Positions 25,318 to 28,133 of a stretch of DNA of 64,000 bases are shown piece by piece. The DNA is from Escherichia coli (GTDB lineage Bacteria; Pseudomonadota; Gammaproteobacteria; Enterobacterales; Enterobacteriaceae). The position numbers were made by a program, and so were the translations under genes. The first letter of the stretch is position 1. The number at the start of each line of letters is the position of its first letter. Below the pieces are notes generated by a model that saw only the letters and a program-made list of their open reading frames with translations, was not told where the DNA came from and made no database searches. The stretch lies in the NCBI RefSeq assembly GCF_044324875.1, contig NZ_CP172185.1. One strand, written 5' to 3'.

Positions 25318-26169
25318 GTGTTAATTATCGAAACCCTGCCGCTGCTGCGTCAGCAAATCCGCCGCCTGCGTATGGAAGGTAAGCGCGTGGCGCTGGTGCC
25401 CACCATGGGTAACCTGCACGACGGCCATATGAAGCTGGTCGACGAAGCCAAAGCCCGCGCCGATGTGGTCGTCGTCAGTATTTTCGTTAACCCGATGCAG
25501 TTCGACCGCCCGGAAGATCTGGCACGTTATCCACGGACCTTGCAAGAGGACTGCGAAAAGCTGAACAAGCGCAAAGTGGATTTAGTTTTCGCCCCTTCGG
25601 TAAAAGAGATCTACCCGAACGGTACAGAAACCCACACCTATGTTGATGTTCCCGGTCTTTCTACCATGCTGGAAGGTGCCAGCCGTCCGGGACATTTTCG
25701 CGGCGTTTCGACTATCGTCAGCAAGCTGTTCAATCTGGTCCAGCCGGACATCGCCTGCTTCGGTGAAAAAGATTTTCAGCAACTGGCGCTGATCCGCAAA
25801 ATGGTTGCTGATATGGGCTTTGATATTGAGATTGTCGGTGTGCCAATTATGCGCGCCAAAGACGGTCTGGCGCTGAGTTCCCGTAACGGTTATCTGACGG
25901 CGGAACAACGCAAAATTGCGCCTGGTCTGTACAAGGTTTTAAGTTCGATTGCCGACAAATTGCAGGCTGGCGAACGGGATCTCGATGAAATTATTACTAT
26001 TGCCGGGCAAGAACTGAATGAAAAAGGCTTCCGCGCCGATGATATTCAGATTCGTGATGCCGACACCTTGCTGGAGGTCTCTGAAAACAGCAAACGTGCA
26101 GTGATTCTGGTAGCCGCCTGGCTTGGCGATGCCCGCCTGATCGACAACAAAATAGTCGAGCTGGTGTAA
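25318..26169 (+). CDS. panC: pantothenate synthetase
   Basis: 283 aa, GTG start, [37 protein letters not shown] (HIGH-type motif). Confidence 0.95.
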
Positions 26170-26250
26170 TATTTAACTGGCGCTACGGCTGATGGCGCCA
26201 GTTATTCATTGCCACGTCATCTGTAAGAAATTATTCATATCGTAGACAAC

Positions 26251-26466
26251 TTAGTTAGAGTTAATTAGCTTATCAACCTCTGTAAGAGATAAAGTTGCCA
26301 TCTCTGCAACGTCTTCCCGAGACATTCCTTTACTCAGAAGACGCTGGGCCAGCCTTACCTTCCGGAGTCCCTCTTTATATCCCTTCTGAAATCCCTTCTG
26401 AAATCCCTTCTCTTCAAACCACTGCGCCAACGTCTGCCTGGTTTCTCTCCGTGTCTTTATTTCCAT
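26251..26466 (-). CDS. stand-alone Rpn C-terminal-tail paralog (RpnS-like small protein)
   Basis: 71-aa ORF; LAQWFEE...QRLLSKGMSREDVAEMA...EVDKLI closely parallels the last 70 aa of the adjacent rpnC product; created by an 85-bp tandem duplication. Confidence 0.5.
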   Translation of the reverse strand: MEIKTRRETRQTLAQWFEEKGFQKGFQKGYKEGLRKVRLAQRLLSKGMSREDVAEMATLSLTEVDKLINSN

Positions 26467-26636
26467 ATATTCCCTTAATTATCTGGTCAGTTAACAATAA
26501 CAATTATCTGGCTATAACTGATAATGCAGATAACTTAGCTAATCAGCTTATCAACCTCAGCAAGGGGTAAATTTGCCATCTCTGCAACGTCTTCCCGAGA
26601 CATTCCTTTACTCAGAAGACGCTGGGCGAATTCCTG
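26265..26636. repeat. tandem duplication of the rpnC 3' end (two ~85-bp near-identical copies, period ~280 bp)
   Basis: Copies at about 26265-26349 and 26544-26636 share the run ttgccatctctgcaacgtcttcccgagacattcctttactcagaagacgctgggc. Confidence 0.85.
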
Positions 26637-27479
26637 ACTTACTTCCTGTGTTACTTCCTGTATTACCTCTTGTCTTACCTCTTGTCTTACCTCTTGTCTT
26701 ACCTCCTGTCTTCCTTCCTGTCTTCCCCTCTCTTCAAACCACTGCGCCAGCGTCATCATAGACTTCCCTCCCGTTTCCCTGTCTCTCAGCACACCATAAA
26801 ACAAATCCGCTTGTTCAGTATGACCGCGTTGCAGCATATAGTTTTGCATGGCAACTAACTGACTTCCGCTAGTGTACCCTTCGTCAATCAGCGTGACCAG
26901 TTGCTCCAGCAATAACATTAAGTCGCGCTGGCGAATATGTTTTTGCAGTAGTTCGAGAATCGCAATCCGCCGATGTTGCATGATTTCGTCATCCGGTGTG
27001 ATGGTGATATCCACCAGCGGGAAAGGGTTGTTGTAAACGCGTCGCGCCAGCTCCGGCGAGTAAAACATATCAAACCAACACATTGAGAGCGGATAAGGTG
27101 TGGCCTCGCCCTGATAAAACAGAATCGGCACCACCAGCGGCAGCTTATCGTGATCCGCCTCCAGATGCCGGTGCATGGCAGCAATAGAATAACGCATCAT
27201 GCGAAAGGCCATTTTCTTATCCGGCTTACTTTGGTGTTCAATCACCACATGCAAATAACCGGGATTACCCTGCATTTGTACGGAATAGAGTACGTCCGTG
27301 CTGTGCCCTTTCAGGCTTTCCTCAATAAAACTCCCCGACTCAAGATGCAGCGTGTCGAGGTCACACAGTTCGCGTAGCTCCGCTGGCAAATGGATATCCA
27401 GAAAGTCACGAGCCGTTTCCGCATGCATTAAAAATTGTTTAAATACCGCGTCATGCGGTGTGGTACTCGGTGCATCCAT
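26535..27479 (-). CDS. rpnC: recombination-promoting nuclease Rpn family (YhgA-like PD-(D/E)xK)
   Basis: 314-aa ORF at the K-12 yadD position between panC and panD; Rpn-family sequence with C-terminal repeat-containing tail. Confidence 0.8.
   Translation of the reverse strand: MDAPSTTPHDAVFKQFLMHAETARDFLDIHLPAELRELCDLDTLHLESGSFIEESLKGHSTDVLYSVQMQGNPGYLHVVIEHQSKPDKKMAFRMMRYSIAAMHRHLEADHDKLPLVVPILFYQGEATPYPLSMCWFDMFYSPELARRVYNNPFPLVDITITPDDEIMQHRRIAILELLQKHIRQRDLMLLLEQLVTLIDEGYTSGSQLVAMQNYMLQRGHTEQADLFYGVLRDRETGGKSMMTLAQWFEERGRQEGRQEVRQEVRQEVRQEVIQEVTQEVSQEFAQRLLSKGMSREDVAEMANLPLAEVDKLIS
26637..26726 (-). repeat. in-frame 12-bp tandem repeat tract within rpnC (RQEV units)
   Basis: About 7 units of tacctcttgtct and variants, encoding RQEVRQEVRQEV...; a second shorter tract (atcccttctgaa, KGFQ units) lies at 26379-26412 in the small ORF. 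Confidence 0.85.
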
Positions 27480-27752: not shown

Positions 27753-28133
27753 ATGATTCGCACGATGCTGCAGGGCAAACTCCACCGCGTGAAAGTGACT
27801 CATGCGGACCTGCACTATGAAGGTTCTTGCGCCATTGACCAGGATTTTCTTGACGCAGCTGGTATTCTCGAAAACGAAGCTATTGATATCTGGAATGTGA
27901 CCAACGGCAAGCGTTTCTCCACCTATGCCATCGCGGCAGAACGCGGTTCGAGAATTATTTCCGTTAACGGTGCGGCGGCCCACTGCGCCAGCGTCGGCGA
28001 TATTGTCATCATCGCCAGCTTCGTTACCATGCCAGATGAAGAAGCTCGCACCTGGCGGCCCAACGTCGCCTATTTTGAAGGCGACAACGAAATGAAACGT
28101 ACCGCGAAAGCGATTCCGGTACAGGTTGCCTGA
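27753..28133 (+). CDS. panD: aspartate 1-decarboxylase
   Basis: 126 aa [29 protein letters not shown] (pyruvoyl-forming G-S site). Confidence 0.96.

Follow-up and report, generated by a model that had tools for sequence, protein, structure and literature searches.

Two tracts of 12-bp repeats lie close together in a 64-kb stretch of Escherichia coli DNA (the window), each of them in frame within a minus-strand ORF, and they raise the question of whether unit number differs among strains, how units are gained and lost, and what such changes would do to the encoded proteins. The longer of the two ORFs (26535..27479, minus strand) encodes 314 aa and corresponds, by ORF list, Pfam/NCBIfam matches and K-12 synteny, to the rpnC (yadD) CDS. 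It lies between panC (25318-26169, plus strand) and panD (27753-28133, plus strand), an order that a synteny comparison found to be the same in K-12, and the rpnC locus was matched in 5424 of 5426 complete E. coli genomes. A Pfam search aligned residues 7-207 of the protein with PF04754 (Transposase_31; E=3.3e-87), which comprises YhgA-like putative transposases of the PD-(D/E)XK nuclease family, and NCBIfam TIGR01784 (Rpn family) matched with 279.8 bits (cutoff 52.1). Overall the protein shares 90% identity with K-12 RpnC, with 235 of the first 240 residues the same, and a 16-residue alignment gap in the repeat tract accounts for nearly all of the difference between its 314 residues and the 300 of K-12. 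Judged from its sequence, and specifically from the shared neighbours and the high N-terminal identity, the 314-aa ORF is the ortholog of K-12 RpnC, and full-length RpnC_L is predicted to be composed of an N-terminal PD-(D/E)XK nuclease (toxin) domain and a C-terminal tail. PADLOC (PADLOC-DB v2, whose 2023 models may be older than the Rpn report) contained no family that matched RpnC or the 71-aa product of the shorter ORF.

The rpn genes have been described as toxin-antitoxin systems built as genes within genes (Zhong, Jiang, Hickman, ..., Laub, Storz, PNAS 2023; PMC10400941). Full-length RpnL is a toxic DNA endonuclease, and RpnS, a small C-terminal domain translated from an internal start, blocks it; for K-12 RpnC, both the toxicity of RpnL and its neutralisation by the cognate RpnS were demonstrated, and RpnC_S was detected by ribosome profiling and tagging (PMC10400941). 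Four-residue repeats that vary among strains begin 8-20 residues after the RpnS start, within helix 1, and set the specificity of L/S pairing; across E. coli strains they are most numerous in RpnC (PMC10400941). Some strains carry, downstream of rpnC, a second copy of rpnC_S called rpnC_Ss, which also varies by four-residue repeats and which deletion, or fusion to the N-terminal part of rpnC, can remove (PMC10400941). The locus in the window resembles the published RpnC_L/RpnC_S pair in gene, chromosomal site, nested frame and the position of the repeats in helix 1, and its second tail resembles the published rpnC_Ss in its downstream location and in having deletion and fusion alleles of the kind described. 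It differs from K-12 in the tract itself (KGIE KGIQ QGRQ EVSQ EF in K-12, versus an 8.5-unit RQEV-type tract here) and in the presence of rpnC_Ss, which K-12 lacks. We are therefore highly confident that the locus is E. coli rpnC, in the two-tail form of the published toxin-antitoxin and candidate anti-phage system, although anti-phage activity was demonstrated for plasmid-borne RpnP2 and not for RpnC (PMC10400941). A preliminary description of the window, made from its sequence alone, had read the locus as a nuclease/antitoxin pair with a variable tail, and that reading matches published RpnL/RpnS.

The nested rpnC_S frame (26535..26759, minus strand, by computed coordinates) would encode 74 aa, MMTLAQWFEE...KLIS. 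Its putative start is an in-frame ATG ATG at 26759/26756, at the same position as in K-12, and a Shine-Dalgarno-like GGGAGGG (26766..26772, minus strand), which may act as its ribosome-binding site, lies 6 nt 5' of the internal ATG. From these sequence features, together with the published ribosome profiling and tagging in K-12 (PMC10400941), we infer that translation of RpnC_S begins here. RpnC_S and RpnC_Ss are both presumed to be made in this strain; among the Ss proteins, RpnE_Ss/YpaA is the only one to have been tagged (PMC10400941). In a consensus promoter/terminator scan of the region, no promoter was detected on the minus strand from which rpnC_S or rpnC_Ss could be transcribed. Counted from the first residue of each small protein, the tract starts at residue 11 in RpnC_S and at residue 20 in RpnC_Ss, both inside the published 8-20 range.

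The models were compared with the crystal structure of RpnA_S (7TH0), in which two three-helix bundles form a dimer via a long helix 1 (PMC10400941). An AlphaFold (AF2) model of RpnC_S, built from a 34-sequence alignment (mean pLDDT 70.6), places helices at residues 4-50, 55-61 and 66-73, with the whole tract inside the first. The model thus resembles 7TH0 in having a long helix 1 followed by two short helices; helix 1 is far shorter in 7TH0 than in predicted RpnC_S, where the repeats lengthen it. Superposition on 7TH0 gave a target-normalised TM of 0.83 and an rmsd of 1.1 Angstrom over 43 columns, with a Foldseek E of 2, which is not significant because the fold is tiny and HTH-like. The rpnC_Ss model (pLDDT 72.8) has the same order of helices, and 7TH0 was absent from its top 50 Foldseek matches. 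The sequence similarity of RpnA_S to RpnC_S was below phmmer and hmmsearch detection: searches of the PDB with RpnC_S and with a tail profile did not retrieve 7TH0, and their hits were limited to designed helical repeats and weak HTH proteins. Given weak structural and absent sequence retrieval of 7TH0, we rate the RpnS three-helix fold with repeats in a long helix 1 as consistent with the models but not proven.

The shorter ORF (26251..26466, minus strand; MEIKTRRETRQTLAQWFEE...KLINSN) encodes a free-standing 71-aa tail paralog that the ORF list, PGAP and TIGR01784 all support. In near-identical genomes the paralog carries the PGAP name 'RpnC/YadD family protein', and C-terminal positions 213-273 of TIGR01784 match it with E=2.7e-10; a Pfam search found nothing beyond a sub-threshold HTH_3 match. 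Its database homologues number 166, the shortest listed at 54 aa (partial) and the longest at 113 aa, and the full-length Ss variants among them are 57-77 aa. Homologues of the protein also bear a precomputed PF27070 label. The duplication that relates the two tails is visible in the DNA: a downstream arm encoding the conserved C-terminal helices (26259..26349) and an upstream arm in the 3' end of rpnC (26537..26627), both found by repeat search, are 92% identical at an offset of 278 bp. Between the rpnC stop and the rpnC_Ss start lies a spacer (26467..26534, minus strand) that marks the two-tail architecture, with a conserved core and an AAGGGA 5' of the rpnC_Ss ATG; a 33-mer from it was identical in every one of 13 two-tail genomes and also matched exactly in 54 metagenome contigs. 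Used as a 149-bp query, the two-tail junction was found in 1555 of the 5426 complete E. coli genomes (29%). K-12 is without this second copy, and its panC-rpnC locus is shorter by about 334 bp. These comparisons indicate that the 71-aa ORF is paralogous to the tail of RpnC and corresponds to the published rpnC_Ss. A panC-rpnC spacer of about 300 bp in O157:H7 and LHM10-1 was considered as a possible decayed Ss copy and proved to be an unrelated insertion beside panC.

Tandem Repeats Finder reported two tracts of period 12 at the locus, one at 26379-26411 (2.8 copies, 100% match) and one at 26632-26724 (7.8 copies, 88% match). A lag-12 test found exact 12-periodic runs at 26379-26411 (33 bp; run length 21) and 26663-26705 (43 bp; run length 31), which are the only two lag-12 runs of at least 18 in the whole window, and none of 5000 codon shuffles of each ORF attained the observed run. 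In the long ORF, MMTLAQWFEE is followed by the tract and then by AQRLLSKGMSREDVAEM. The hypervariable segment shared by rpnC and rpnC_S, from QWFEE to AQRLL (26628..26729, minus strand), is 34 aa (102 bp) long and consists of 8.5 12-bp units, RGRQ EGRQ EVRQ EVRQ EVRQ EVIQ EVTQ EVSQ EF, or, in the RQEV register, of RQEG, four RQEV, IQEV, TQEV and SQEF. Three of these eight related units are identical 12-mers, GAGGTAAGACAA, which together with 7 nt make up the perfectly periodic core (26663..26705, minus strand). In the short ORF, MEIKTRRETRQTLAQWFEE is followed by a KGFQ-type tract and then, as in the long ORF, by AQRLLSKGMSREDVAEM; its variable segment (26350..26409, minus strand; TRF and lag-12 test) is 20 aa long and reads KGFQ KGFQ KGYK EGLR KVRL, and the perfect run at 26379-26411 consists of two copies of AAGGGATTTCAG and a partial unit. 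The preliminary description of in-frame 12-bp tracts in rpnC and its tail paralog is thus confirmed, and its count of about seven RQEV units in rpnC was a fair one. The single span it gave for both tracts, 26379-26726, does cover them, but about 220 bp between the tracts is not repetitive. It had also called the repeat of the paralog different, which is true in that this repeat encodes KGFQ and misleading if taken to mean unrelated: the two repeat 12-mers have about 7 of 12 bases in common and occupy homologous positions in the duplicated tails, and they represent diverged forms of a single repeat.

To compare copy number among strains, we sampled 76 loci, 22 of them from complete genomes and 54 from metagenome contigs, the latter retrieved via the conserved spacer 33-mer. 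The RpnC variable segment was 10, 14, 18, 22, 26, 30, 34 or 38 aa long across all 76 loci, and every one of these lengths except 22 aa occurred among the complete genomes. The Ss segment ranged from 14 to 30 aa over genome loci and metagenome contigs, with lengths of 14, 16, 18, 20 or 26 aa in the complete genomes. The length variation proceeded in 4-aa steps across the 76 loci. Both tails were present in 59 loci (S, 10-38 aa; Ss, 14-30 aa), and at the DNA level there were 32 alleles among 74 S tracts and 17 among 63 Ss tracts. When tracts were grouped into haplotypes by the order of their distinct 12-mers, the sole variable within a haplotype was the count, from one to four, of one identical 12-mer. 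The S haplotype of the window contains GAGGTAAGACAA three times in 11 loci and four times in two (NY1601 and KK19-02), and NY1601 matches the window at 99.1% identity across 1451 bp, a figure in which the 12-bp indel is counted. Other S haplotypes contain one, two or three copies of GAGGTAAGACAG, or one, two, three or four copies of AAGGGAATTGAG. Among Ss haplotypes, AAGGGATTTCAG is present once or twice (in the sister of the window's haplotype, once in 13 loci and twice in 4), and GAAGTAAGACAG is present one to four times. Copy number, for which a comparison across E. coli genomes had been proposed, therefore differs between strains, and the tract is not one of fixed length in the species.

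Collapsed repeats in short-read assemblies could in principle produce such differences, and coverage is low in many of the metagenome contigs. The tracts, however, are at most 114 bp long, which is under read length, and identical alleles recur across many independent complete genomes and metagenomes, making assembly artefact an explanation that we regard as next to negligible. A tandem repeat in the coding region of a defence-type gene also brings to mind the classical phase-variable contingency locus, in which repeat changes act as an on/off switch. Simple-sequence contingency loci are likewise coding tandem repeats that gain and lose units in conflict-driven genes, but their units are 1-5 or 7 bp long and a frame shift switches expression, whereas in rpnC any gain or loss preserves the frame because the unit is 12 bp. 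All 137 of 137 tracts were in frame, with lengths spaced by multiples of 12 bp and no frameshifting length classes, and the changes alter specificity or length rather than expression; a switch of this type is extremely improbable here.

How, then, are units gained and lost? The published work left open how the dodecamer repeats expand and contract (PMC10400941), and within the literature searched for 2024-2026 there was no further work on the Rpn repeat mechanism. The unit-run pattern is the one expected from slippage, or from unequal exchange between neighbouring identical units, two processes that it leaves undistinguished. The proposal that the tracts change length by slippage is borne out insofar as copy number varies in a pattern that slippage fits; slippage itself is inferred, unequal exchange fits equally, and the tails also recombine. 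Evidence for the latter comes from mosaic and fusion alleles. Strain 54214 has a single-tail locus in which a window-type tract is joined to an Ss C-terminus (...ATLSLTEVDKLINSN), and in E21 and 2012C-4221, as in the database proteins P0018, P0020 and P0026, the RpnC N-terminus is fused to an Ss-type tract and C-terminus; the protein database also contains the reverse mosaics P0061 and P0064, with an Ss N-terminus and a K-12-type tract. Recombination between the two tails, giving mosaics and fusions, is evident from these sequences. Length changes could therefore be ascribed mainly to recombination or gene conversion, between the tails or with incoming alleles, for which the 92%-identical arms 278 bp apart would be a ready substrate; in addition, the original authors suggested that RpnL may promote unit gain, tail duplication and tail recombination (PMC10400941). 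Within a haplotype, however, the diverged flanking units are fixed and only the count of one identical 12-mer moves, which is the pattern expected of slippage or unequal exchange within a tract and not of tail swapping. Both kinds of process probably operate, and the dispute is about which dominates; that recombination does seems to us possible but rather doubtful. A more speculative idea, due to the original authors, makes the RpnL nuclease responsible both for the gaining of units and for the duplication of the tail.

Not all lineages vary. With the 291-bp K-12 tail as query, 3466 of 5424 genomes matched with at least 95% identity, and the sampled matches in these bands were, with one exception, ungapped and full-length; one short allele length, that of K-12 (KGIE KGIQ QGRQ ...), is therefore common to about 64% of complete genomes, and hypervariability is confined to long-tract lineages. 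The expectation of a variable tail is thus upheld for lineages with long tracts and must be set against an unchanging short allele in the majority of complete genomes. Hypervariability in lineages with longer runs of identical units fits run-length-dependent instability, and it could also reflect population structure. A megablast census using the tract and its anchors yielded usable spans, taken from ungapped or two-piece matches, of 129, 141, 153, 189, 201 and 213 bp, all multiples of 12 from 201, and is unusable for allele counts, since partial and cross-tail joined matches fill its identity bands. We also considered whether Ss is kept orthogonal to the resident L by an unequal tract length. 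Only one of the 59 pairs of tails from one genome was equal in length, against 1.3 expected from random pairing (P(<=1)=0.60); this is chance level and gives no support for length avoidance.

A commonest allele that is short and of constant length, and S and Ss lengths that are unrelated within a genome, are what might be seen if the repeats were neutral low-complexity expansions in a tolerant, functionless linker. Several observations argue otherwise. The tract is predicted to form a continuous helix and not a loop, its units retain one hydrophobic residue and three charged or glycine residues, and the remainder of RpnC is almost invariant. Most directly, one extra KGIE repeat in RpnC_S or in RpnC_LS alone abolished neutralisation, and the same repeat in both restored it (PMC10400941). 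The neutral reading, already largely refuted by that repeat-swap experiment, is very unlikely.

We propose instead that repeat number acts through the geometry of helix 1. The full-length gene would produce RpnC_L, a PD-(D/E)XK DNA endonuclease, and the internal start would produce RpnC_S, its last 74 residues, which would bind and neutralise RpnC_L via the long helix 1. The 12-bp repeats encode four-residue units that would lie within this helix. In standard alpha-helix geometry, a four-residue unit adds about 6 Angstrom of length and about 40 degrees of twist. Each unit would thus shift both the length and the twist of the helix, and unit number would therefore set which S pairs with which L, a step size that may rationalise the published one-unit specificity. 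Since S is nested in L, their tracts change together. The rpnC_Ss gene is a separate copy of the tail, derived from a tandem duplication with a 278-bp offset and carrying its own diverged tract. Whole identical 12-mers would be added to the tracts or dropped from them through replication slippage or unequal exchange, with tail-tail recombination adding mosaics and fusions. Of this account, the anatomy, the frame, the homology and the variation among strains rest on the sequences analysed here. Toxicity, neutralisation and repeat-number specificity are carried over to this strain by analogy with the K-12 work (PMC10400941).

Despite lack of relationship between the proteins, this arrangement bears similarity to the TAEL repeats of HsdS in the type I restriction enzymes EcoR124I and EcoR124II, an analogy cited by the original authors (PMC10400941). 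There too the unit is 12 bp and encodes four residues in a helical spacer, and a change of one unit alters specificity with the frame intact. The HsdS repeat sets the spacing of two DNA-recognition domains, whereas the RpnC repeat sets toxin-antitoxin pairing.

The role of rpnC_Ss allows a more speculative reading. As the two tails have tracts of unequal length in 58 of the 59 loci, the product of rpnC_Ss may fail to serve as an antitoxin to the RpnC_L of its own locus, and the gene could be an alternative tail kept in reserve. One deletion by homologous recombination between the two arms, which are 92% identical, would then replace the tail of L and that of the nested S together, and the natural fusion alleles (54214, E21 and 2012C-4221) would be products of such switches. 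If this were true, the spare tail would offer a single-step route to a specificity both new and self-compatible, which might serve, for instance, to escape a phage-encoded RpnS mimic. We consider such a role unlikely, and offer it as a tentative suggestion.

In all essentials, the system and its repeat variation were already known from the 2023 publication (PMC10400941). Both the preliminary finding and its interpretation restate that paper, because it reports the repeats, the pairing specificity and rpnC_Ss; with the biology so described, the window adds only another allele. What is new here is modest: the two-tail count of 1555 in 5426 genomes, the short allele in about 64% of them, the unit-run pattern and the lack of length avoidance between tails. 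These census numbers lend modest support to an account of how the dodecamer repeats expand and contract. More broadly, rpnC is a natural example of a gene in which repeat number retunes the protein-protein lock between a toxin and its nested antitoxin without breaking the frame, and is of relevance to how defence genes diversify.

The panC gene and rpnC_Ss, a minus-strand paralog of the RpnC tail (26251-26466), are convergent, and the stretch between them holds an inverted repeat, AACTGGCGC(N11)GCGCCAGTT, at 26175-26203 that is kept in every aligned strain and is probably a bidirectional terminator common to both genes. Its loop exceeds 8 nt, which is why a terminator scan made no call at 26175-26203. 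Immediately 3' of panC, an insertion of ~140-215 bp that is missing from the window is present in O157:H7 MB9-1, in LHM10-1 and in 2017-02-2CC (compared loci L012:300-520, L021:270-490 and L017:378-520). This inserted sequence, which includes CCCCAGGAGCTTACATAAGTAAGTGACTGGGG, looks like an ERIC/IRU intergenic repeat.

The spacer that separates rpnC_Ss from rpnC (minus strand, 26535-27479) is also conserved. Within it, 5' of rpnC_Ss, a 10-nt direct repeat, AATTATCTGG, occurs at 26477-26486 and 26502-26511, and the 33-mer surrounding the repeat is matched exactly in all 13 of 13 genomes carrying both rpnC and rpnC_Ss (two-tail genomes). Exact matches also occur in 54 metagenome contigs, which were gathered with this 33-mer as the query. 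The repeat may act as part of a promoter or as a binding site for a protein. Closer to the gene, the base at 26469, 3 nt 5' of the rpnC_Ss start codon, is private to the window (A on the plus strand, T on the coding strand); the sequence ahead of the ATG is GGGAACAT or GGGAACCT in the other two-tail loci (68 of 68) and GGGAATAT in the window.

Each 12-bp unit in the variable segments of rpnC (26628-26729) and rpnC_Ss (26350-26409) contains, on the coding strand, a purine core that resembles a Shine-Dalgarno sequence (GAGGT, AAGGG or GGAAG), probably as a by-product of the E, G, K and R codons. With respect to the encoded tail itself, the precomputed Pfam label PF27070.1 is attached to many rpnC_Ss homologues (P0007, P0010, P0012 and others), and a search of the window's 71-aa protein with the Pfam copy used here did not report PF27070.1, indicating that the Rpn tail is probably now covered by a recent Pfam family.

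Apparent frame disruptions were seen in two of the compared loci. The annotation of E. coli 2012C-4221 gives rpnC as frameshifted, and the tail in this strain is in addition a fused one of the Ss type; in a single low-coverage metagenome contig (L051) the frames are broken upstream of both tails. These disruptions may reflect toxin loss under way in some lineages, or they may be sequencing errors.

Among two-tail loci, only the metagenome contig ERZ1643246.1945 (L075) has variable segments that are both 18 aa long. Its rpnC tract is of the K-12 type (KGIEKGIQQGRQEVSQEF) and is accompanied by an rpnC_Ss gene (KGFQKGYQEELQKVRQEF); therefore, a K-12-type tail and rpnC_Ss can coexist at one locus.
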